From positions 18,236 through 82,235 of the forward strand of contig JAVBVZ010000037.1 in assembly GCA_036679405.1 (NCBI GenBank): a stretch of DNA of 64,000 nt, given 5' to 3'. Position numbers and translations under genes: made by a program. Under the pieces are notes generated by a model. It had not been told where the DNA came from. It saw only the letters and a list, made by a program, of their open reading frames with translations, and ran no database searches. This stretch comes from Christensenellaceae bacterium (GTDB taxonomy: Bacteria; Bacillota; Clostridia; Christensenellales; Christensenellaceae). Each line of letters opens with the position of its first letter. Positions within the stretch are counted from its first letter, which is position 1. This document shows, piece by piece, positions 10,452 to 22,066 of this stretch.

Positions 10452-11254
10452 CATAAAACATTATTTTCAAATATAACGGTATCACAGTACCGGTTTGCTT
10501 TTTTAAGCTGTTCTTCCGTACGGATTGTCCATCCCAGTATGGGCAGTCCTTTTTTCCTTAGCCGTGACACCACTTTCCTTGGAAGATCGTCTATTTCGTA
10601 GCTGATAAAATTCGGACGCGCCATAAAGTTGGTAAGCAAATGTTTCAGCCCAAATACCTGATAGGCGGGCAGCGGCTCGGACAGGTCTCTAAATGCGGAA
10701 GAAAGCTGTCCGCGGAGCACCTCCGGCGCATGCGCAGAAAACCATCCAAGCGAATACGGTGAAAAAGACTGCACCGCAAACAGGCCGTCATATTGTTTTA
10801 GAAGCGCCCATGTTTTTTCTTCCAGTTCACCTGCTTTTCCCCTGCTTTTTATTTCGATCAGCAAAGGGACCCGTCCGTTTACCATGTGCAAAACATCTTC
10901 AAAAAGCGGAACGCCCTCTTTGCTCCCCGCCAAAAAAAGATTTGACAGCGTTTTTGCATCAAGCGCAGATACCGCCCGGTCCATTCCCGTCATCCTTTTC
11001 AAATTGTCGTCATGGATCACAACCGGAACCCCGTCGGATGAAAGATGGACATCCAGTTCGATGCCATATCCGCTTTCGGCCGCCCGCCGGAAAGCATACA
11101 TGGAATTCTCCGGAACGCCCTCTCCGTGCAGCCCCCGATGCGCATAGCGGTAAGCCGCTATCCAGCTTTCCGCCCTTTCTCCTTTGGTAATCAAAAAATA
11201 TCCTGCCCACACCGCCACAAAAACCAAAGCAACTGTCAAAATCCAAAACAGCAT
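10451..11254 (-). CDS. membrane-anchored glycerophosphodiester phosphodiesterase
   Basis: N-terminal TM helix followed by [13 protein letters not shown]...[18 protein letters not shown] (GDPD motifs). Confidence 0.85.
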
Positions 11255-11416
11255 AATTATGTGCCTCTTTTCCTTTTAAACTATACCTTTTTTTGTTTTT
11301 CATTTCAACCGCCCGTTTTTGACTTTTCAAACATTTTACATACCCCGCCCCCCTATACATATTGTATAATTTCAAACGATTTGTTATACTATACGGTAGT
11401 CGCTTTGGAGGAACAT

Positions 11417-14400
11417 ATGCAAAAATACAAATTAGGTTTAGATGTTGGCTCAACTACGGTTAAGCTTGTTATTATAGACGATCAGGATCAGATCATTTTC
11501 AGTGAATATATGCGCCACTTTTCAGACATGCGCGGCGTTCTGACGGATCTATTTAAACTGGCCAAGGAAAAATGCGGAGAGCTTTCGGTCGTGACGGCGG
11601 TTACCGGATCGGGCGGCCTTACGGTTTCCCGTCTTTTAAATTTGCCCTTTGTCCAGGAGGTTGTCGCCGGCGCAAGGGCCACGCAAAAATTTATACCCGA
11701 AGCGGATGTCGTGCTTGAATTCGGCGGTGAAGACGCAAAAATCACTTACATGAAACCCAGCCTGGAACAGCGCATGAACGGAACCTGTGCGGGCGGTACC
11801 GGCGCGTTTATCGACCAGATGGCCATGCTTTTAAACACAACGCCCTCCGGCCTTAATGAACTGGCTGCCAAACACGGCGCCATTCATCAGATTGCTTCCC
11901 GTTGCGGCGTATTTGCCAAAAGCGATATTCAATCTTTGCTGAACGACGGCGTATCCAAAGCGGATATCGCGGTTTCAATATTCCAGTCGGTCGTCAACCA
12001 GACAATATCAGGCCTGGCTTGCGGAAGACCTATTCGTGGGAATGTCGCCTTTTTGGGTGGTCCGCTCCATTACCTGCCCGAATTGCGCGTCCGTTTTCGT
12101 GAGACGCTTAACCTTACGGACGAAAGCATGATCCACCCGGAAAACTCCCATCTTTTTGTTGCACTGGGCGCCGCGCTGATGGCGGAAAGCGGCGAAACCA
12201 CTGTCTCCGAACTCTATGACCGTCTGATCCATGCAGGCGACATTGAGCACGAAACCCGGCGGCTTGATCCCTTGTTCTCTTCTCCGGAAGAAGCAGCTTC
12301 TTTTAAAGAGCGCCACGCCCAAAACAAGGCACAGCGCAAAGATTTGTCCGTCCACTCCGGGCCTTGCTATCTGGGTATTGACGCGGGCAGCACCACCATT
12401 AAGGCGGTCCTGATAGACGGCGACGCAAATATTCTTTTTTCTCATTATTCAAGCAACCACGGCAGTCCGCTCAGAGCGGCGGCCGGTATTTTAAAAAAGC
12501 TGTACGAACAGCTGCCTTCCGGTGCCGAAATAGCCGGTGCGTGCGTAACAGGTTACGGAGAAGCGCTGATCAGGGAAGCCCTGACTCTCGATTACGGAGA
12601 AGTTGAGACGATCGCCCACTACCGTGCGGCGGCTTACTTCAACCCAGATGTTGACTTCATCATAGACATCGGCGGGCAGGACATGAAAGCTTTGCGCATC
12701 CGGGACGGCGTTATTGAAACTATTATGCTGAACGAAGCCTGCTCTTCAGGCTGCGGCAGTTTTCTTGAAACGTTTGCCCATTCGCTGGATTTTGATATCC
12801 AGTCTTTTGCCGGGCAGGCGCAAACCGCCTCACATCCGGTAGACCTGGGCACACGTTGCACGGTGTTTATGAACAGCCGCGTGAAACAGGCGCAAAAGGA
12901 AGGCGCCTCGGTAGGCGATATCTCCGCCGGCCTTTCCTATTCCGTTGTAAAAAATGCCATCTATAAGGTGATCAAAATAAAAGACCCCGAGCAGCTTGGA
13001 GAACACATCGTTGTCCAGGGCGGCACTTTCCAAAACGACGCTATCCTCCGGGCCTTTGAAATGGTCCTCGGGCGCAAAGTGATCCGGCCGGACATTGCCG
13101 GACTGATGGGTGCTTTTGGCTGCGCGCTGATTGCACGTAAAAAATCCGCCGGCGGCCATTCTTCCATCATCACACCCGAAGAACTGGCAGACTTTTCTTT
13201 GAAAAGCAAAAACCGGCGCTGCGGCGGCTGTGAAAATCATTGCATGCTCAATATCATAACGTTTGCGGACGGACGCAAATTTATTGCGGGAAACCGCTGT
13301 GAGTTCGGCGCCGGGTTTGAAAAACGCAAGGATATTCCCGATCTTTTTGAATACAAATATATCCGTACGTTTGACTATCCGTCCCTGGGCGAGAGAGCAC
13401 CTTTGGGTACAATTGGGATTCCCCGCTGCCTGAATATGTATGAAAATTATCCGTTCTGGCATACGCTGCTGACCAAGTTCGGTTTTAACGTTGCGCTTTC
13501 CTCCCGTTCGGACCGTAAACTGTTTGAACTTGGGATGGATACGATTCCAAGCGACACCGTATGTTATCCGGCCAAACTGGCCCACGGGCATATTGCAGAT
13601 CTTTTAAAGCAGGGCGTCAAAACAATTTTTTATCCTTCCATCCCTTACCAGCCTAAGGAATACGAAGGCGCAAACAATCGCTTTAATTGTCCGATCGTTA
13701 CATCCTATCCGGATACGGTAAAAAATAATATGGACGACATCCGCGAAGACGGCATCACCTTCCTGCACCCATTTTTTAACCTAGACAACCGAAAATCCAT
13801 GCCGGGCCGGGTTTATGCAGAATTCAAAAGTTACGGCATCACCCGCAAACAGGCGGAAGAAGCCGTTAATGCCGCTTATGCCGCTCAGGAGCAGTACCGT
13901 GCGGACATCTGCAAAAAAGGCGAAGAAACACTCGCGTGGATGAAAAAAACAGGAACCCGTGGAATCGTACTGGCCGGGCGTCCTTATCATATTGATCCTG
14001 AGATCAACCATGGTATCCCTTCGCTAATCACCAGCTACGGCCTGGCAGTCCTTACAGAGGACAGCGTCGCCCACCTGGGCCACGTGGCGCGCCCTCTGCG
14101 TGTGCTTGACCAATGGGCCTTCCATACCCGGCTGTATGAAAGCGCGGGGTTGGTTGCCAAGACCCCGAACCTGGACATGATCCAGTTGAATTCCTTTGGC
14201 TGCGGCCTGGACGCTATTACGACCGACCAGGTAGAAGAGATCTTAAAAGCCGCGGGAAAAATTTACACGGTTTTAAAAATTGATGAAATCAATAACCTTG
14301 GCGCGGCCAAAATCCGCATCCGCTCTCTCATTGCGGCCCTGGAGGAAAAAACATTCGACCCGGAAAAATATAAAGAAGCGGGGCATGTTTTCCACCGCAG

Positions 14401-15664
14401 AATGTTTACCAAGGAAATGCGGGAACAGCATACTCTGGTATGTCCGCAGATGGCGCCGATTCACTGGCAGTTTTTACCCGACGCTTTCAATCCTACGGGG
14501 TACAACTTCGCCGTTATCAATGAGGTGACCAAAGAAGACATTGATGTTGGATTAAAATATGTAAATAACGACGCCTGTTACCCCACCATCATCGTAGTCG
14601 GGCAAATTGTCAACGCCTTTATCAAAGGCGACCTGGACCCTGACAACACTTCGGTAATGCTTACGCAAACCGGCGGCGGCTGCCGTGCGTCCAACTACAT
14701 TGCCTTTTTGCGCAAAGCACTCAGGGAAGCAGGTTTCCCGCAGGTGCCTGTTGTTTCGATCAACTTTTCGCGTCTGGAACCCAATCCGGGATTTAAATTT
14801 ACCGTCAAATTTGCAATGCGCATCATGATGGCCGTTTTATTTGGGGATCTTCTTATGAACGTGCTTTTGCGGACCCGTCCATACGAAACCAAAAAAGGTT
14901 CCACCAACGCTCTTTATTCTTCCTGGGTCAAAAAATGCAGCGCAATCATCCGGCGGGGCAAAAAAAGCGAATTCAAGCGTGCAGTGCGTGAGATCGTATC
15001 CGATTTTGAGGCGCTGCCCATTAACGATATTCCCAAGCCAAAAGTCGGCATTGTGGGCGAGATCCTGGTAAAATATCACCCGGTCGCCAACAATTTTGCC
15101 GCTGAAACCATAGAGGCCGAGGGCGGCGAATGCATTATGCCCGGGCTTATGGATTTTGGCCTGTATTCGTTTTACAACACGCAATTCTCCAGCAGCCATC
15201 TCGGCTCGAACAAGCTGCTTGGATTTGGAGGCCGGGTCGGTATTTCGGTCATAGAAAGTTACCGCAAATATTTAACGCGCGTCCTTGAAAAAAGCAAGCG
15301 CTTTTATACGCCCCAGCATATCCGGGATATTGCAAACCGTGCGGAAAGCGTGCTTTCGGTAGGTAACTGTACGGGTGAAGGCTGGCTTCTAACGGCGGAA
15401 ATGCTGGAGCTTATTGAAATGGGCGCGCCCAATATTATTTGTGTGCAGCCCTTCGCCTGCCTGCCCAACCACGTTATGGGCAAAGGCATGATCCGAGAGA
15501 TCCGGCGCCAGCACCCGCAGGCAAATATTATTCCGGTAGACTACGACCCCGGCGCCAGCGAGGTCAACCAGATCAACCGTATCAAGCTTATGATCTATGC
15601 CGCTTTTGAAAACATGCGCAAAGAACTGGACAACCAGGAAGAGTCGCTGAAAAAGGCGGAATAA
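11417..15664 (+). CDS. acyl-CoA dehydratase activase-related giant fusion (2x BadF/BadG/BcrA/BcrD ATPase plus C-terminal domain)
   Basis: Two ASKHA ATPase modules ([15 protein letters not shown]; [15 protein letters not shown]) and a Cys motif [11 protein letters not shown] at 11417 has GGAGG 5 nt upstream. The track's 1539-aa version runs antisense through the GDPD gene. Confidence 0.8.
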
Positions 15665-15675
15665 ATATTTCAAAC

Positions 15676-15722
15676 AAAAAAGGCATAAAACGCGCCGCCG
15701 CGCAAAGTTTTATGCCTTTTTT
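15676..15722. terminator. bidirectional terminator closing the RiPP-like operon and the activase gene
   Basis: Long stem AAAGGCATAAAAC/GTTTTATGCCTTT flanked by A-run and T-run. Confidence 0.75.
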
Positions 15723-16929
15723 ATTGCAGTCCGAATTTATGGACTTTTTCTTCAAGCCTTTTGGCCCGGCAGCCCGTTAAAACGCCCAATGTGATCTTAA
15801 AAGCTTTGACCGGCGAATGAATGAATTTGCCAACCCCCCTCTGCATCCAGGCGGCAGGTAAAAAAAACGGCCTCTTTTTTAAATAAGCATATCGCTTTGA
15901 CATCGCGCTGCACGGCGGGAACAGCACGGAACGCAAACGTGAAAACTGCGTTTGACCGCCGGTACTCTTTAACGTGCGGCTGTTTAAATTTTTTTTTGCC
16001 AATTCCCTGTCATAATGCAAAAACAAAGGATGCTCCCGCCCAAAGGCACCGTTCTCGAGTATCAATTCTCCCAGCTCGGCGCATATATCCGCCTCGGTGG
16101 CCCTGCCGATATCCACAGGCGCCTTCACACCAAACCAGTCTTCACATAAAGCAAATATATGCCGTGAAAATTGCAGGATTCCGCATTCATTCAATAATTC
16201 AGCCATCTTGCACGCATCTAAATCCCCTCCGTATCGCTTTTGCCATAAAGCGACATCCAGAAGCATCCTGACGCCAAATCCGTCCACCATATGTTTTGCC
16301 ATATGGAACAACATAATTATAAGATGATACTCCGGCTTTGGCCGCCTGCATCCCAAACCGCCGGAAGAAACCGTATTTTCCCAAATATCCGAAAAAATCC
16401 GGCTGTCTATCTTTAAAGATCCCGTTGAGTAAAACAAGGTGTCATGGATCTCAATACATACTCCTTTTTCATTACGATAGGTCCATTCACTGTCTTTTTT
16501 AAAACGGACGTAGCCCGATTCCATCAAGATTGCATGGCACCGGGACCGGTCTTTTGGATATACCAGTATATCTATGTCCCCCATCGTTCTGAGTTCCGGG
16601 TTCGGATAAACGTCACGGACCACAACCCCTTTAAAAGGCATATACGGCATGCTCTCTTTATCGGCTCTTTGGCTGAAGTCCAAAAGCGCCCGTTCCTGCA
16701 GTACGGAACTGCAGATGGAGGCGAAATACCCTTTTTTCAGCAACGCGCTTTCATTTGAGGGCAGCGGAACGTTCACCTTTTTTAAAACGGCATACGCAAT
16801 CCCTTCCACATTATGAATTCTGCAAAGGCGGCAAAAATCTTTCCAGTCCGTATCCGCCGCCTCCAAGGCCCCCTTACCGGCCAGATAATAGCCGAGGAGT
16901 TTTATAAAAAAATGCTGCGTCCTGTTCAT
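15721..16929 (-). CDS. PF14907-like uncharacterised nucleotidyltransferase (RiPP-associated type)
   Basis: YMPFKGVVVRDVYPNPELRTMGDIDILVYPKD matches the NTP_transf_5 core as I remember it. Start overlaps the ABC exporter stop (ATGA). Confidence 0.65.
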   Translation of the reverse strand: MNRTQHFFIKLLGYYLAGKGALEAADTDWKDFCRLCRIHNVEGIAYAVLKKVNVPLPSNESALLKKGYFASICSSVLQERALLDFSQRADKESMPYMPFKGVVVRDVYPNPELRTMGDIDILVYPKDRSRCHAILMESGYVRFKKDSEWTYRNEKGVCIEIHDTLFYSTGSLKIDSRIFSDIWENTVSSGGLGCRRPKPEYHLIIMLFHMAKHMVDGFGVRMLLDVALWQKRYGGDLDACKMAELLNECGILQFSRHIFALCEDWFGVKAPVDIGRATEADICAELGELILENGAFGREHPLFLHYDRELAKKNLNSRTLKSTGGQTQFSRLRSVLFPPCSAMSKRYAYLKKRPFFLPAAWMQRGVGKFIHSPVKAFKITLGVLTGCRAKRLEEKVHKFGLQ

Positions 16930-18668
16930 ACGGCTCCTTTTTTGCTGGATTCTTTTTTGTTTTCAAGCGGCAATTCCCTGACCGTTCCGCCCTTGATTTC
17001 CAGGGCCCGGGTGCAATAATCCAGCATTGAACGCCGGTGGGTAATAATAAAGCCGGTATGCAGCAAATTCGACTCCCGCATCCGCCGTATCACGCGTTCT
17101 TCGGTATCTTCATCCAACGCAGAGGTTGCCTCGTCCAGAATCAATATGGGCGCATCTTTCAGGACTGCTCGTGCAATCGCAATCCTTTGGGCCTGTCCCT
17201 CGGATAATCCGAGCCCGTTTTCGCCTATATTTGTTTTAACGCCCTCTTCAAGGCTTTCGACAAAAGAGAGGCAATCGGCTATTTCGAGCGCGCGGCGCAT
17301 TTGTTCGGGTGTAACATCCTCTTTTCCGGCCCGCAGATTATCCTCCAGCGTCCCGGAAAGCAGCGTGTTTCCCTGGGGTACATAAGATATAAATCGCCGC
17401 GCCTCAGCGGAAGCATCCTCCAGCGCTCCAAAATCACCCGAAAACTCAATTTTTCCCTCTTGCGCTTCTACCAGCGACAACATCAAGCGTACCATTGTTG
17501 TTTTTCCGCATCCGCTTTCCCCGACAATGCCCACAACCTCATTTGGCTCAATCCGGAGACCGACGTCCCGCAAAACATGATCTCGTCCATAGCCGAAGGA
17601 AAGATTTTTGATTTTTACTCCAATATTCTGCACACACGGCCCCGGCATTTTTATGCCTCTCTTTTCTTCCTGCACCGCATCCAGTTCCATCACGCGCCCC
17701 GCGGAAGCCAGTACCGTAATAAACCTTGGTATAATGGTCCCCAGATTGATGATCGGTCCCTGTACCTGCGCAACCAGAGATAAAAATATCGTCATGGTCC
17801 CATAGGTTATACTGCCGCTGGAAAGCCTGTATATCCCCCAGCCGAACGCCAGCAGGTATCCAATGCTGAAAACAGAGCGTATGCAGAGATTCATCATGGT
17901 GTTCAGCCTGTTCCTCTTCAAAATGACCGCCAGGCGCTTTTCTTTGTATTCCAGCATTTTTTCGTTGCAAAAAACTTCCTGCTCAAATGTCTTGGTAACG
18001 GCAATATTTTCAATGGTTTCCTGCATGAACGCGCGATATTCCGATTCTGTTTTGTTCAGTTCCACCTGATATGTTTTCAATTTTCCACTAAAGGCCAAAC
18101 TTAAAACCACGCCGACCGGCCCTATCATGAGGGCGGCCATGGCCAAAAAGTGGTCATAATGGAACAAAACAAAAAAAGCGCTCACCAATTGAAAAAGCAG
18201 CAAGAATATATTAGGGATCATGGAAGAAATGCCATTTGAAATTTTTTCAACATCACTGGTCAGGCGGGTCACGATATCTCCGCTGTGATAAGACATGACT
18301 TTCTGCCATACGCCACGCAGAATGCTGTTATATACTTTTGTACGGATCCCAAAAGCATACCGTTCGCTGATATAAGAAGTCAAAATGCCCACTACCGCAC
18401 TGATGCCGATTCCAAGGGCGGTCAGGCCTATCAGAAGCGCAAGGCCCTGCGTAGAAAACACAGGGCCTTCACCGGTTGCACCGTCAATAATATATTTGGT
18501 CACAACCGTGCTTCCGATGCCCGCAATGGTTATAACCAGGTTCAAAGTCAGAATCAGTATAAACGAGCCCATGAAAGGCCGGGTTTTATCCATCATCCAC
18601 TTCAGGCAGGAGGAGTTGTTTTTTCGGTCCTTCAAAAACCGAATCAGTTTTTTTAAAGTTTCCCGCAT
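16926..18668 (-). CDS. ABC exporter, fused permease/ATPase (type I exporter), no C39 peptidase domain
   Basis: 6-TM N-domain; Walker A GESGCGKTT, signature LSEGQAQRIAIARAV, Walker B ILILDEATSALD. ATG at 18668 (MRETLKK...) follows GGGAG. Confidence 0.85.
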   Translation of the reverse strand: MRETLKKLIRFLKDRKNNSSCLKWMMDKTRPFMGSFILILTLNLVITIAGIGSTVVTKYIIDGATGEGPVFSTQGLALLIGLTALGIGISAVVGILTSYISERYAFGIRTKVYNSILRGVWQKVMSYHSGDIVTRLTSDVEKISNGISSMIPNIFLLLFQLVSAFFVLFHYDHFLAMAALMIGPVGVVLSLAFSGKLKTYQVELNKTESEYRAFMQETIENIAVTKTFEQEVFCNEKMLEYKEKRLAVILKRNRLNTMMNLCIRSVFSIGYLLAFGWGIYRLSSGSITYGTMTIFLSLVAQVQGPIINLGTIIPRFITVLASAGRVMELDAVQEEKRGIKMPGPCVQNIGVKIKNLSFGYGRDHVLRDVGLRIEPNEVVGIVGESGCGKTTMVRLMLSLVEAQEGKIEFSGDFGALEDASAEARRFISYVPQGNTLLSGTLEDNLRAGKEDVTPEQMRRALEIADCLSFVESLEEGVKTNIGENGLGLSEGQAQRIAIARAVLKDAPILILDEATSALDEDTEERVIRRMRESNLLHTGFIITHRRSMLDYCTRALEIKGGTVRELPLENKKESSKKGAV

Positions 18669-18972
18669 ATTCGCAGCTCCCGCTAGAGAAAAACAGTTTT
18701 TTAAAGTTCCGCTTAAACAGCCTCTTTTTAAAAGCTGCGTCTTGCCTGTGATCCAAATTTTTTCACGATGCGGCAATCCGTCCGTATCCGCCGCCTTAGC
18801 CAGGGGCGGCGCGCAAATAAGGAAGCCTTCTTAAAAAAGGGTATATAAACGGCCTGCGCGTTACCTGTACCCACAGGCAAATCAGGTTTCCGCCCTTTTG
18901 AAAATTTTTTTTAAAATCCACGGAAAGCCACGCGGCTTTCAGCCCCGTCAGTTATCCGGCTTTGATCATCTA

Positions 18973-19131
18973 TTAGTTATTTACCGAAACCAGTTCCGGA
19001 GTGCCTGATGTGCAGCTGCTCGTGCCTACATTGGTCCAAACTGAAAAACACGAACTTCCCGATGCGGCAATATGTTCTGAAAAACAGAATTCGGTAACTT
19101 CCAAACGCGGTGTTTCATATTCTTTTTTCAT
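18973..19131 (-). CDS. 52-aa candidate RiPP precursor peptide
   Basis: MKKEYETPRLEVTEFCFSEHIAASGSSCFSVWTNVGTSSCTSGTPELVSVNN, with AAGGAG RBS about 9 nt upstream. Sits immediately downstream of the rSAM/SPASM gene. Cys16/28/40 are periodic. Confidence 0.7.
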   Translation of the reverse strand: MKKEYETPRLEVTEFCFSEHIAASGSSCFSVWTNVGTSSCTSGTPELVSVNN

Positions 19132-19182
19132 ATAAGACTTCTCCTTATAAATATAAATGAACAGCAATGCTTTCTTTGCGCA

Positions 19183-20343
19183 TTACAGTTTTCTGATACC
19201 CTCCAGCGCCATTCGCTTTCCTTCGGCGCACACCCGCGGATTTGCCCGCCCTTCTCCCACAGCCAGCCAATGCACGGCAGGACACAGGACGCACACTCTG
19301 TTATAAAGGCACCCGTCACACTCTTCCGGCATACGGTATTCACACGAACGTTTATAAACGGTATCCCAGGCGGCCGCAAAACCGGATTCAAGGGGAAACG
19401 CCTGCACAAAATCAAACGCGTTGCACGGCGTCATTTTCCCATCCCAGCTTATGGAGAATCGAATCCGCCCCGCCGTGCAGCGAACGCCCTTTACGTTTTG
19501 AAATGGCCTGTCCTCCGCCGTCCCGGCTCTGTCCAGCAAATCCGCTTCACAGGAATAAGGTGCCGGGGTTTTCCCTTCCATTTTCAGCCTTATCCCGGCT
19601 ATTTTAACCATATCATCCAGTGTGACCGAATAATTGTCATATTTCCGCCCCGTTTCTACGCGCGGTTCAAAGGGGAACGCCGTCACATTGCAGCCAAATG
19701 GCTCTTTTGAGCGGCAGTACCTTAAAACCGCTTCAAAATCATTCACAATCTGCCTTGACAGGGTGATTGCAAGATTAAACGGCAGATCCGCGTCCTTTAC
19801 AAGATCAATGGCCCTGTCCACTTCCAAGAAAGCTTCGGCGCTTCCGGTCACCGCCCTGTAGCCTTCGGGCGAACTTCCGTAAACTGAAATCTGGATCTGT
19901 TCAGGAGGGCGTTCACGCATCCAGGCAACGGTTTTTTCATCGAGCAGCGTCCCGTTTGTCAAAACGGTGACCAGTATGCCCCTTGCCTGCAGATGTTCGT
20001 AAATTTCTTTAAACCCGGGATGCATCAAACATTCTCCGCCGGTCAGGGTGGCATGCATCATGCCCGCTTCACAGGACTGGTCTATCAGATCAATCCACTG
20101 CCCTGCGGAAAGCTCATCACAATGCATCTGCCCGGGTTTTAGATGCACATAGCACATGGCGCAGTTCAGCGTGCATCTGGGCGTCAGTTCAAAGCAGCCT
20201 ATCAGAGGGATTCCCCGCTCCCAGGCTTTTTTTCTCATATAATTATAAAACGCATCCGCTTTTTCGATGCCTTTTTTCTGTTCAAGACATTCAAGAAGCT
20301 TTGACATTCCTCTTTGTTCCTCAGCTTTCCTGCAAAATTTCAA
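19183..20343 (-). CDS. radical SAM/SPASM domain peptide maturase
   Basis: CTLNCAMCY (CxxxCxxC). C-terminal SPASM pattern CTAGRIRFSISWDGKMTPC ... CDGCLYNRVCVLC. TTG start at 20343 overlaps the upstream gene; an alternative ATG is at 20307. Confidence 0.85.
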   Translation of the reverse strand: MKFCRKAEEQRGMSKLLECLEQKKGIEKADAFYNYMRKKAWERGIPLIGCFELTPRCTLNCAMCYVHLKPGQMHCDELSAGQWIDLIDQSCEAGMMHATLTGGECLMHPGFKEIYEHLQARGILVTVLTNGTLLDEKTVAWMRERPPEQIQISVYGSSPEGYRAVTGSAEAFLEVDRAIDLVKDADLPFNLAITLSRQIVNDFEAVLRYCRSKEPFGCNVTAFPFEPRVETGRKYDNYSVTLDDMVKIAGIRLKMEGKTPAPYSCEADLLDRAGTAEDRPFQNVKGVRCTAGRIRFSISWDGKMTPCNAFDFVQAFPLESGFAAAWDTVYKRSCEYRMPEECDGCLYNRVCVLCPAVHWLAVGEGRANPRVCAEGKRMALEGIRKL

Positions 20344-21475
20344 GCTCTCTTAATTGGCCCAAAACCGCGCTCAGATCACCTTTTGCCGTTTTTTCATCCG
20401 TTTCATACTCGTCCAAAACGGATTGGAGGACATCTTCTTCGGAAACCGGCTGTTCCATCTGCTTCCATATAAAAGCAGCCACTTCGTTTAATACGATCGC
20501 GCCCTCAAAGTTTTTTATATTTCTTCCGGTAGGCATGACTACCCATTCGTCCATTACATTCTTCAAGAGAAATCCTTCCTTGATCTTCATATCTGGCTGC
20601 TCCTTTTCCAATCGATCGATTTCATCATCAAACAATATCCTGCGCATCACCTCGGCGCTTGAGGGATCAGGCAGGCAAAAAAAACGGTAACACGGAACGC
20701 GCCCGGATATCTGCCGGATCGTCTTTAAAACTTCAAACTTGGCCGTATCGTCCCACATTGGAATCAGGCACTGTTGGGCCAACAGCTTAAAGGCCTGTTT
20801 GCTGTTCAGCTTGCGCACAAGATTGCGTTTTCCTCTCCGCACTTCTACGATTGCCGACACGGGATATTCTTTTTGTAAAAAAACCCGTTCCTTGCCGTCC
20901 CAGGGTACGCCGGATGCATATAACGCTTCATCCCGCATATGCAAAAAAGGCCGGTCACCGCTTAACATATCCGCTCCCAAACATTTTTCCCACAAAGCGG
21001 CCTGCGTGCTTTTTCCCGTTCCGGCCGGCGCCGAAAAAAGCACCGCCCGCCCGTTCAGGCATACGCAAGAAGCATGTATCCCCAGCCCATGATCTGCTGC
21101 CATGCGGCATTCCGCGGCCAGCCTCAGCAATTTTATAAAATTTTCCTGTAATACGCCTCTGTTTGAATTCTGTCCCGCCTCAACATATCCTTGCAGTTTC
21201 TCATAGTTATCCGACGCTTCAAGGCTACAGCGGTTTTTCGTATCTGTACTCAAAAAAAGCCATCTTCCCCCACCCAGATCGGCAATTCTGACTCCCATTC
21301 CTTCCGATACATAAGTCGATCCGGTATATTCAGGCAAGATGCCAAAATACAGCTCAAGAAACGCATCACAGCTGTAAGGTATTTTGCTTTTAAAAAAAGA
21401 TAACGGGCTGTCCAGTAAAAAATCACTCTTATCCAACACCCGCAAACAATATCCGGCAAAAAAGAATTTTTGCAT
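20321..21475 (-). CDS. HPr-kinase-like P-loop domain fused to C-terminal PqqD-family (RRE) domain
   Basis: HASCVCLNGRAVLFSAPAGTGKSTQAALW is an HprK C-domain-like P-loop. The last ~90 aa, IVLNEVAAFIWKQMEQPVSEEDVLQSVLDEYETDEKTAKGDLSAVLGQLRELEIL, are PqqD-like. Confidence 0.7.
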   Translation of the reverse strand: MQKFFFAGYCLRVLDKSDFLLDSPLSFFKSKIPYSCDAFLELYFGILPEYTGSTYVSEGMGVRIADLGGGRWLFLSTDTKNRCSLEASDNYEKLQGYVEAGQNSNRGVLQENFIKLLRLAAECRMAADHGLGIHASCVCLNGRAVLFSAPAGTGKSTQAALWEKCLGADMLSGDRPFLHMRDEALYASGVPWDGKERVFLQKEYPVSAIVEVRRGKRNLVRKLNSKQAFKLLAQQCLIPMWDDTAKFEVLKTIRQISGRVPCYRFFCLPDPSSAEVMRRILFDDEIDRLEKEQPDMKIKEGFLLKNVMDEWVVMPTGRNIKNFEGAIVLNEVAAFIWKQMEQPVSEEDVLQSVLDEYETDEKTAKGDLSAVLGQLRELEILQES

Positions 21476-21610
21476 TATATATGTTATGTACCTTCCCTTT
21501 CGTCAGCAAAATACCATATTTTATCCAAAGCGCATTATAAAATAATTATGAAGAACTGTAAATATGATTTTGTTTAAATCACTATTCTTTTGCCTTAAAT
21601 GTACGAAATG

Positions 21611-22066
21611 TTATTTGTGCCGCACCGACCTGCCCAACCGCTTTGCAAAAACCAAAATCTTCAGGATATGCTTTTTTATAAAAGATTTAAAATGATAAAG
21701 AGGCGTAACACGAAAAATCTTATTTTTCCGCCGGACCTGCCGGGCGATTCCAATGATATCGGATGTCAAAAAAGGCCCTTCGCATGTTTTTTGTGCATCT
21801 CCCCGGTAATACAAAAAATCGCTGCGGCACTTCACCACCCTATGCAGCAGGCAGTGTTCTCCCGCCTGCGTCAGAAGGATGTCTCCTTTTACAGGTTTAC
21901 GCTCCAATGGAACAATAAATACGCTGTCGCGCATATCCCGCAACGTCGGTGCCATGCTTTCGCCCGTTACAGTAAGCCAAAACCCCTGCCGGGCGGCAAT
22001 TTTTTCCCGCATTTGCGGTACAAGTACTTTTGGATCTCCAATATGAACCATACAATCCCATTCCAC
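21611..22066 (-). CDS. S24/S26-family (signal-peptidase-I-like) serine peptidase
   Basis: TVTGESMAPTL (GxSMxPT nucleophile box) and LLHRVV box. First gene of the operon. Confidence 0.65.
   Translation of the reverse strand: MEWDCMVHIGDPKVLVPQMREKIAARQGFWLTVTGESMAPTLRDMRDSVFIVPLERKPVKGDILLTQAGEHCLLHRVVKCRSDFLYYRGDAQKTCEGPFLTSDIIGIARQVRRKNKIFRVTPLYHFKSFIKKHILKILVFAKRLGRSVRHK

Follow-up and report, generated by a model that had tools for sequence, protein, structure and literature searches.

A six-gene cluster in a Christensenellaceae genome predicted to make a radical SAM-modified peptide from a precursor with a lasso-type leader

Introduction

In lasso peptide systems, HPr-kinase-like enzymes place a phosphate on the C-terminal Ser of the precursor, to which the nucleotidyltransferase PsmN then attaches a hexose (PMC9266682, PMC6993621). 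PsmN was described as an uncharacterised nucleotidyltransferase and a lasso tailoring enzyme (PMC6993621). Lasso-type recognition domains that co-occur with radical S-adenosylmethionine (SAM) enzymes, without lasso genes, were noted by the authors of RRE-Finder (PMC7470986). Here we describe a short precursor gene and the cluster around it in a 64,000-nucleotide stretch from a Christensenellaceae bacterium (assembly GCA_036679405.1, contig JAVBVZ010000037.1, positions 18,236 to 82,235), the whole of which we call the window.

The cluster consists of six co-directional genes on the minus strand (15721-22051), in the order protease, fusion of a kinase-fold domain with a PqqD domain, radical SAM/SPASM enzyme, precursor, ABC exporter and PF14907 nucleotidyltransferase. 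The flanking genes are unrelated (PFK, GDPD, a CoA-enzyme activase, a TIM-barrel protein, a cupin, a ferredoxin-like protein and DinB) and set the boundaries of the cluster. We propose that the short open reading frame (ORF) encodes the precursor of a radical SAM-modified ribosomal peptide that this cluster would produce in a five-step route. We consider this proposal probable, with considerable room for error.

The steps were deduced from homology and conservation. The lasso-B1-type PqqD domain would bind residues 1 to 24 of the precursor, through Y5-x-x-P8 and the aromatic pair F15/F17. The SkfB-like radical SAM/SPASM enzyme would crosslink Cys28 and Cys40, the most likely product being two thioethers of the sactipeptide or ranthipeptide kind. 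The kinase-like domain, tethered to the leader, would phosphorylate a hydroxyl group of the peptide, and the PF14907 transferase may build on this phosphate, in the manner of the lasso enzymes PsmK and PsmN. The signal-peptidase-like protease, which is of the endoplasmic reticulum (ER) type, would cut the leader after A22-A23-S24, and the ABC transporter would export the 28-residue product.

The precursor gene

The features of the precursor gene are as follows.

18973..19131, minus strand: precursor gene, 52 amino acids plus stop (translation, homologues, codon comparison, public gene calls)
19141..19146, minus strand: Shine-Dalgarno site AAGGAG, 9 nt ahead of the ATG
19060..19131, minus strand: predicted leader, residues 1-24, MKKEYETPRLEVTEFCFSEHIAAS, holding Y5, P8, F15, F17, Cys16 and the A22-A23-S24 end (column conservation in 83 precursors)
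18976..19059, minus strand: predicted core, residues 25-52, GSSCFSVWTNVGTSSCTSGTPELVSVNN, with Cys28 and Cys40 in C-x3-W-x-N-x-G-x3-C, ending in N51-N52 (conservation)

Translation of window positions 18973-19131 on the minus strand gave MKKEYETPRLEVTEFCFSEHIAASGSSCFSVWTNVGTSSCTSGTPELVSVNN followed by a stop. This is exactly the peptide, at exactly the coordinates, that an earlier note on this DNA had put forward as a candidate precursor. The plus-strand reading of the same segment yielded stops only, so the gene is that of the minus strand. The features listed in the earlier note were also present: Cys16, Cys28 and Cys40, the leader string Y5-E-T-P8-R-L10, and 14 Ser/Thr within residues 13-50 by our own count.

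The ORF behaves as a gene, because it is preceded by the AAGGAG site, differs from its homologue at locus L055 by 21 synonymous and 9 non-synonymous codon changes, and is annotated as an identical 52-residue ORF on 13 public contigs. Purine-rich sites were found at the equivalent place in its homologues. We conclude that it is a genuine gene under purifying selection. When the peptide was scanned against Pfam and NCBIfam, along with eight related precursors, no curated family was returned, only weak matches to lasso leaders.

Related precursors were collected by synteny. A leader hidden Markov model built from nine close homologues found few distant precursors and was replaced by a broader seed with metagenome loci. 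The sample was extended by a genome scan with the radical SAM enzyme (45 loci), by look-ups of fusion-protein homologues, and by a metagenome scan with an alignment of the fusion protein (80 loci). Together these gave 83 distinct precursors, to which the family-wide counts below refer.

The leader and its recognition domain

The leader was highly conserved. Tyr at position 5 and an aromatic residue (Tyr or Phe) at position 17 occurred in all 83 precursors, Pro8 in 82, Lys2 in 81 and Phe15 in 76. Position 10 was Ala in 53 precursors, Val in 12 and Leu in 7; among the nine close homologues it was Leu in seven. The leader motif of the family is therefore Y-x-x-P-x-[A/V/L]. The earlier note had taken YxxPxL as the conserved leader determinant, of which Y5 and P8 were upheld by the family (83/83 and 82/83) and Leu10 was not (7/83). 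Residues 1-12 gave weak matches to lasso leader models, of the paeninodin family and of cyanobacterial lasso peptides (E about 0.09).

Conservation extended through a block reading E-V-T-E-F-x-F-S-E-H-I-A-A-S, within which Cys16 is located, and stopped at [A/V]-x-Ser. This motif closed the leader in 75 of the 83 precursors, the others having Thr, Met or Glu at the -3 position. In the window peptide it reads A22-A23-S24 and is followed by Gly. The -2 position was variable (A, T, E, Q, S, N, H and others) and, together with the small residues at -3 and -1, this fits the pattern of the -3/-1 rule. We placed the boundary after Ser24 because conservation stops at [A/V]-x-Ser, a position that also fits the co-encoded signal-peptidase-like protease. 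The leader would thus comprise residues 1-24 and the core G25-N52. The earlier note had suggested a boundary near residue 22 from lasso-like spacing. This was not supported, since a Thr at -2 and a B2 protease are both missing, and conservation ends at Ser24. Its corollary, that Cys16 falls inside the leader, was borne out by the conserved block reaching Ser24.

The domain expected to read this leader is the following.

20324..20590, minus strand: PqqD-type precursor recognition element (RRE), residues 296-384 of the fusion protein (Pfam PqqD, 4.9e-15)

It forms the C-terminus of a 384-residue fusion protein (20321-21475, minus strand), encoded two genes upstream of the precursor in the direction of transcription, as the earlier note had reported. 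In a profile search against solved structures, the best relatives of the recognition domain were TbiB1 (1.8e-6), TfuB1 (4.4e-6) and, at 1.5e-4, a lasso PqqD chaperone; PqqD itself reached just 0.86. The AlphaFold2 model of the fusion protein had a mean predicted local distance difference test (pLDDT) score of 91.5. Foldseek superposed the recognition-domain model on 5v1v, the structure of TbiB1 with the TbiA leader, with a template modelling (TM) score of 0.81 and a root-mean-square deviation of 1.9 Å. Judged by profile and model, the PqqD domain is of the lasso B1 type. On the same grounds, the view that the leader would be read by the PqqD domain of the fusion protein appears well founded.

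Conserved cysteines and the radical SAM/SPASM enzyme

In the window peptide, Cys16, Cys28 and Cys40 are exactly 12 residues apart. The earlier note had read them as the heads of three pseudo-repeats, each of which might receive one crosslink from the radical SAM enzyme. The chance of equal spacing for three residues placed randomly in 52 positions is 2.9%. Among the nine close homologues, C40 was kept in nine and C28 in eight. Position 16 was Arg in four of them, a change that takes one TGT-to-CGT transition, and the C16-C28 distance ranged from 12 to 15. Across the 83 precursors, position 16 was mostly occupied by other residues (Asn 20, Gln 19, Arg 13, Asp 11, Cys 6, Ser 6). The pseudo-repeats were also poorly matched, repeats 1 and 2 being identical at 5 of 12 positions and repeats 2 and 3 at only 2. 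Their common part was just CFS...SS, in which F29 and S30 varied among the close homologues. The 12-residue periodicity of three Cys is therefore not conserved and is no more than chance. The idea of three crosslinks is unsupported because position 16 is variable and only two core Cys are conserved. Cys16 is probably a neutral leader residue.

The core told a different story at Cys28 and Cys40. Fifty of the 83 precursors had two core Cys and 30 had three, and the cores were otherwise hypervariable. In a 59-member alignment, the C28 and C40 columns were each at least 90% Cys. The spacing between the first two core Cys ranged from 7 to 20 family-wide, with a mode of 12. A strict C-x11-C was found only in a subfamily of 20 members that includes the window peptide and has the motif CxxxWxNxGxxxC. 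Of the C-x11-C-x11-C spacing in the earlier note, the second interval is kept in this subfamily, and the first, which depends on Cys16, is not conserved.

Between the conserved Cys of the window peptide lies W32-T33-N34 (window 19030-19038, minus strand), which resembles the three-residue cyclophane motif of triceptides. W32-x-N34 was strictly kept only in the CxxxWxNxGxxxC subfamily; another subfamily had Y-x-N.

The enzyme proposed to act on the Cys pair is the following.

19183..20307, minus strand: radical SAM/SPASM maturase, 374 amino acids from the ATG of public calls (Pfam Radical_SAM, 1.4e-19)

Its open frame reaches a TTG at 20343, giving a mechanical ORF of 386 residues against 374 in the public calls. 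With the ATG start, which excludes window 20308-20343, the gene no longer overlaps the fusion gene. The CxxxCxxC motif is formed by C57, C61 and C64, and seven conserved Cys in a SPASM pattern are found at positions 289, 307, 342, 345, 351, 354 and 372. The SPASM Pfam match itself was weak (17.5 bits, under the 21.5-bit cut-off). The enzyme has no recognition domain of its own. Its closest solved relative was SkfB, with 1e-16 in a single-sequence search and 9e-28 with the family profile. By family profile, anSME, SuiB and PqqE followed at about 1e-12 and CteB at 6e-8. ScmE was the third-best NCBIfam match, and no triceptide maturase model was among the best 25 of the 55 NCBIfam matches. Because SkfB is far ahead and the Cys pair is the sole family-wide feature of the core, thioethers from C28 and C40 would be the most economical reading. 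Two of the features by which sactipeptide and ranthipeptide systems are judged, namely a CxxxCxxC motif and auxiliary-cluster Cys in the maturase and conserved Cys donors in the core, were found here.

The kinase-fold domain and the nucleotidyltransferase

Two further parts of the cluster might tailor the peptide.

20606..21475, minus strand: HPr-kinase/PEPCK-fold (ScmC-like) P-loop domain, residues 1-290 of the fusion protein (Foldseek, weak NCBIfam)
15721..16929, minus strand: PF14907 (NTP_transf_5) nucleotidyltransferase (Pfam, 4e-45)

Foldseek comparison of the kinase-fold model gave PEPCK and HPrK/P matches. NCBIfam returned weak matches to HprK_rel_A and ScmC, and precomputed annotations listed PF27840 ScmC. 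H134, the P-loop G152-x-G-K-S-T (with K155) and G173-D174 were invariant in homologues. Since one protein carries both the kinase fold and the recognition domain, the precursor may be argued to be the kinase substrate. The phosphate acceptor could be one of the 11 core Ser/Thr or the Ser at the junction.

The PF14907 gene was also present in the loci of close homologues (L046, L049, L134-137). A tblastn search for PF14907 in loci L001-L045, which form the sister clade described below, found nothing.

A profile search with the fusion protein returned many proteins of 380-410 residues (e.g. P0238, P0246 and P0250-P0276) that matched its kinase-like part at about residues 110-400, in two stretches. 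This pattern suggests either that the two domains are in the opposite order or that the ScmC-like domain follows some other N-terminal domain.

The protease and the exporter

The remaining two genes of the cluster were assigned to leader removal and export.

21611..22051, minus strand: signal-peptidase-I-like (S26, ER/SipW-type Ser-His) protease, candidate leader peptidase (Pfam Peptidase_S24, 2e-5)
16926..18776, minus strand: ABC exporter, fused permease and ATPase, no C39 peptidase domain (Pfam ABC_membrane and ABC_tran)

The protease has 146 residues in the public calls and 151 as a mechanical ORF, the latter from an upstream GTG/TTG start (22052-22066). The boxes G-x-S-M-x-P, G-D, H-R and G-D were invariant in the family, with G35, S37, M38, P40, G61, D62, H75, R76 and G89 invariant and D90 nearly so. 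In a profile search against solved structures, SEC11C and SEC11A were the best matches (2e-5), with these boxes aligned. By these motifs and alignments, the protease is a homologue of ER/SipW-type Ser-His signal peptidase I, and its role as a leader peptidase is putative. The ABC exporter lacks a C39 domain, and a separate leader peptidase is therefore needed.

Distribution and genomic context

Gene content was counted in the 46 related loci that measured 7 kb or more. The radical SAM gene was present in all 46, the protease in 43 and the ABC exporter in 42, and cluster synteny was kept in close and distant relatives. Clusters of this type are common among Clostridia. Homologues of the fusion protein numbered at least 144 in a database clustered at 90% identity, where their best name was "PqqD family peptide modification chaperone". 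At E <= 1e-30, the fusion protein matched 1,154 protein clusters (50% identity). Confirmed metagenome stretches numbered 140.

A sister clade of 45 loci (L001-L045) encoded radical SAM enzymes about 30% identical to that of the window, with a kinase-like gene directly upstream in nearly all. Its precursors were longer and had the same MKxYxKPx leader, and many ended in Ser, the acceptor used by lasso kinases. Examples of these precursor ORFs are located at 16181-16411 in L001, 15907-16146 in L008 and 6043-6267 in L022. In one group of sister-clade precursors (MKDYIKPTFTLAGL...AASC), there is also a resemblance to a lipoprotein signal peptide. The cultured Clostridium polyendosporum JCM 30710, a member of this clade, carries a split cluster (L011, 7974-11129) with a radical SAM gene, a 61-residue precursor, an HPrK-like gene, a separate PqqD gene and a signal-peptidase-like gene. 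Multiplied parts were observed in two other loci. L051 (2347-7062) contains four different precursors and two radical SAM genes, and L053 (4545-9666) contains two radical SAM genes, two PqqD domains and a separate ScmC-like gene.

Genes of capsule synthesis were frequent neighbours. Among the 46 loci, a priming glycosyltransferase (Bac_transf) was found near 25, a cpsD-like tyrosine kinase near 23 and cpsB near 15. In 14 loci that were checked, capsule or exopolysaccharide (EPS) genes shared the strand of the cassette, which in 10 of them lay between cpsD/cpsB and the priming transferase. In L046, L049 and L052, PF14907 genes were interleaved with sugar-nucleotide genes. Loci recorded with a capsule context are L051, L052, L053, L064-L069, L076, L083, L104, L106, L108 and L114. 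No capsule genes were found in the 64-kb window, and its copy of the cluster is not at an EPS locus.

Other features of the window

Two weak signals and one flanking ORF were also recorded.

18923..18940, minus strand: weak terminator-like hairpin 3' of the precursor stop (pattern match only)
21534..21562, minus strand: weak promoter-like site TTTACA-17-TATAAT upstream of the fusion gene (11/12 match)
11045-15664, plus strand: 1539-residue CoA-enzyme activase ORF (BcrAD_BadFG and DUF2229)

The hairpin region after the precursor stop folded no better than its shuffles (z = -1.0), and the number of promoter-like sites in the cluster region equalled that expected from shuffled sequence. The first 120 or so residues of the activase ORF form an unusual extension without a Pfam match, and residues 130-199 gave a weak IS110-transposase-like match. 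The annotated start of this ORF is probably too far upstream.

Alternative explanations

Several explanations of the locus other than the proposed route were considered. The cluster shares much with lasso gene sets. Y5, P8 and L10 are present in the leader, which gave weak lasso leader matches and is predicted to bind a B1-type recognition domain, and the kinase, PF14907 and ABC genes have counterparts in the paeninodin and pseudomycoidin clusters. However, neither a B2 protease nor an Asn-synthetase-like lasso cyclase was found in Pfam scans of the cluster genes and both flanks or in precomputed Pfam listings of related loci. No Asp or Glu occupies core positions 7-9 with the boundary after residue 21 or 24, the sole acidic residue of the core being E46. 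The penultimate leader residue is A23 or H20, depending on the boundary, and not Thr. Moreover, a radical SAM enzyme stands at the biosynthetic centre of the cluster. Lasso peptide identity was ruled out by this gene content, and the probability that the gene encodes a lasso precursor is practically nil. The model of three 12-residue repeats with one crosslink at each Cys draws on the exact spacing in this one sequence and on the CFS...SS shared by repeats 1 and 2. Against it stand the Arg at position 16 in four of nine close homologues and the Cys there in only 6 of 83 precursors, a substitution one TGT-to-CGT transition away. The location of Cys16 inside the conserved leader block, the shifting C16-C28 distance (12-15) and the 2.9% chance of equal spacing point the same way, making this model very improbable. 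A lanthionine-like route would have the kinase phosphorylate core Ser/Thr, the phosphate eliminated and Cys added, while the radical SAM enzyme performs another task such as epimerisation. The fusion of a kinase-fold domain to the recognition domain, a core that is 39% Ser/Thr and the missing C-terminal Ser acceptor would all suit such a route. Yet no lyase or cyclase domain was detected in the cluster, the positions of Ser/Thr relative to Cys are not conserved family-wide, and the radical SAM gene occurs in every locus and is closely linked to the kinase gene. We regard the lanthionine-like route as improbable.

A C-C or C-N crosslink made by the radical SAM enzyme, for example a Trp32-Asn34 cyclophane of the triceptide Omega-x-X kind, would leave the Cys pair to form a disulfide loop. 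This is consistent with the strict W32-x-N34 of the 20-member subfamily and the Y-x-N of another, with the top NCBIfam score of the C-C crosslinker PqqE, and with the loop bracketed by two Cys, which is typical of a disulfide. An aromatic-x-Asn motif is not family-wide, however, and the Cys pair is the only shared feature of the core. In addition, SkfB, which forms thioethers, is far closer to the family profile than either SuiB or PqqE, and triceptide maturases are missing from the 25 best NCBIfam matches mentioned above. Such a crosslink therefore seems unlikely. A further explanation concerns the role of the product, and the same chemistry could underlie it. The peptide may be tied to capsule or exopolysaccharide rather than being antimicrobial, either as a regulatory signal or as a phospho-glycosylated peptide of eps operons. 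The priming glycosyltransferase near 25 of 46 loci and the cpsD-like kinase near 23, the common strand in the 14 loci checked, the position between cpsD/cpsB and the transferase in 10, and the PF14907 genes among sugar-nucleotide genes in L046, L049 and L052 argue for this role. On the other hand, the window cluster lies outside an EPS locus, and the co-location may merely reflect insertion into variable islands of surface-polysaccharide genes. We consider a capsule-related role possible but doubtful.

The proposed route of leader-guided thioether formation and phosphorylation also has points that weigh against it. Position 10 of the leader is mostly Ala rather than Leu, and the recognition domain reached only modest E-values in its Foldseek and profile matches. 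The similarity to SkfB mostly covers the radical SAM core, and by single-sequence score PqqE, a C-C crosslinker, ranks above SkfB as the top NCBIfam match. In the kinase-fold domain, the family has G173-D174 in place of the two adjacent Asp of lasso kinases, a comparison made with the published motif. The C-terminal residue of the precursor is Asn in 24 of 83 cases and Ser in only 4, and the window peptide ends in N-N, with no C-terminal Ser. The PF14907 gene is found in just 14 of the 46 related loci. Finally, the protease has no obvious N-terminal membrane anchor.

Comparison with known systems

Full-text literature searches found no description of a peptide system that combines a kinase-PqqD fusion, a radical SAM enzyme and a signal-peptidase-like protease. 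We tentatively suggest, with more doubt than confidence, that the locus represents an undescribed class of modified peptide. This class would be marked by a lasso-type leader, a kinase-RRE fusion, SkfB-like crosslinking of a Cys pair and an ER-type leader protease. In many Clostridia of gut and rumen, the cassette as a whole is part of a capsule/EPS operon, placed between the cpsD/cpsB regulators and the priming glycosyltransferase. The peptide, possibly phospho-glycosylated via PF14907, might therefore take part in surface-polysaccharide synthesis, or act on it, rather than being an ordinary bacteriocin. If the proposed model is right, a widespread and unstudied family of modified peptides exists in Clostridia, including those of gut and rumen metagenomes. 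Lasso-type recognition, precursor kinases and PF14907 transferases would be portable modules open to re-wiring to radical SAM chemistry, and a signal peptidase homologue would join the set of dedicated leader proteases. The kinase-RRE fusion would also provide a handle on leader-guided HPr-kinase-like enzymes that act without a C-terminal Ser. The recurrent placement in capsule operons implies a possible link between peptide and polysaccharide that is genetically testable. Experiments are feasible in the cultured C. polyendosporum JCM 30710, with its related cluster.

The pairing of an HPr-kinase-like protein of the ScmC family with a radical SAM/SPASM enzyme is reminiscent of the SynChlorMet cassette (ScmC, ScmE/ScmF). 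The taxa and the precursors differ, and the NCBIfam cut-offs of that cassette were not reached by the window proteins (ScmC 16.8 against 125 bits, ScmE 75.6 against 400, ScmF 51.7 against 400). No paper on the SynChlorMet cassette was found in the literature searched. The protease resembles SEC11 and SipW (S26B) in its G-x-S-M-x-P, H-R and G-D-N boxes, in which His replaces Lys, and the precursor leader ends in the small-residue -3/-1 motif A-x-S, as would suit such an enzyme. In contrast to these proteins, the cluster protease is short (146-180 residues), has no evident anchor and is dedicated to a modified-peptide cluster. The precursor leader also differs from a signal peptide in having no hydrophobic core.

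Closer parallels are found in two kinds of peptide pathway. The lasso clusters of paeninodin (PadeK) and pseudomycoidin (PsmK-PsmN) have a leader of the MKKxYxxPxL type, a B1/PqqD domain and an HPr-kinase-family enzyme that acts on the precursor, and also a nucleotidyltransferase (PsmN there, PF14907 here) and an ABC exporter (PMC9266682, PMC6993621). Here, however, the B2 protease and the lasso cyclase are absent, and a radical SAM/SPASM enzyme replaces the cyclase. The precursor has no C-terminal Ser and no Asp/Glu at ring positions 7-9, and the kinase-fold domain has G-D for D-D. The SkfA/SkfB sactipeptide system is similar in that a radical SAM enzyme with auxiliary clusters acts on Cys of a leader-bearing precursor, and an ABC exporter is present. 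It differs in that the recognition domain here is carried by the kinase-fold protein and not by the radical SAM enzyme. The leader here is lasso-like, the protease is signal-peptidase-like, the PF14907 transferase is an additional component, and the thioether is putative. Taken together, the gene content and motifs suggest that the cluster would act like a sactipeptide or ranthipeptide pathway that has borrowed the recognition and tailoring modules of Firmicute lasso systems and a protease of the signal-peptidase type.

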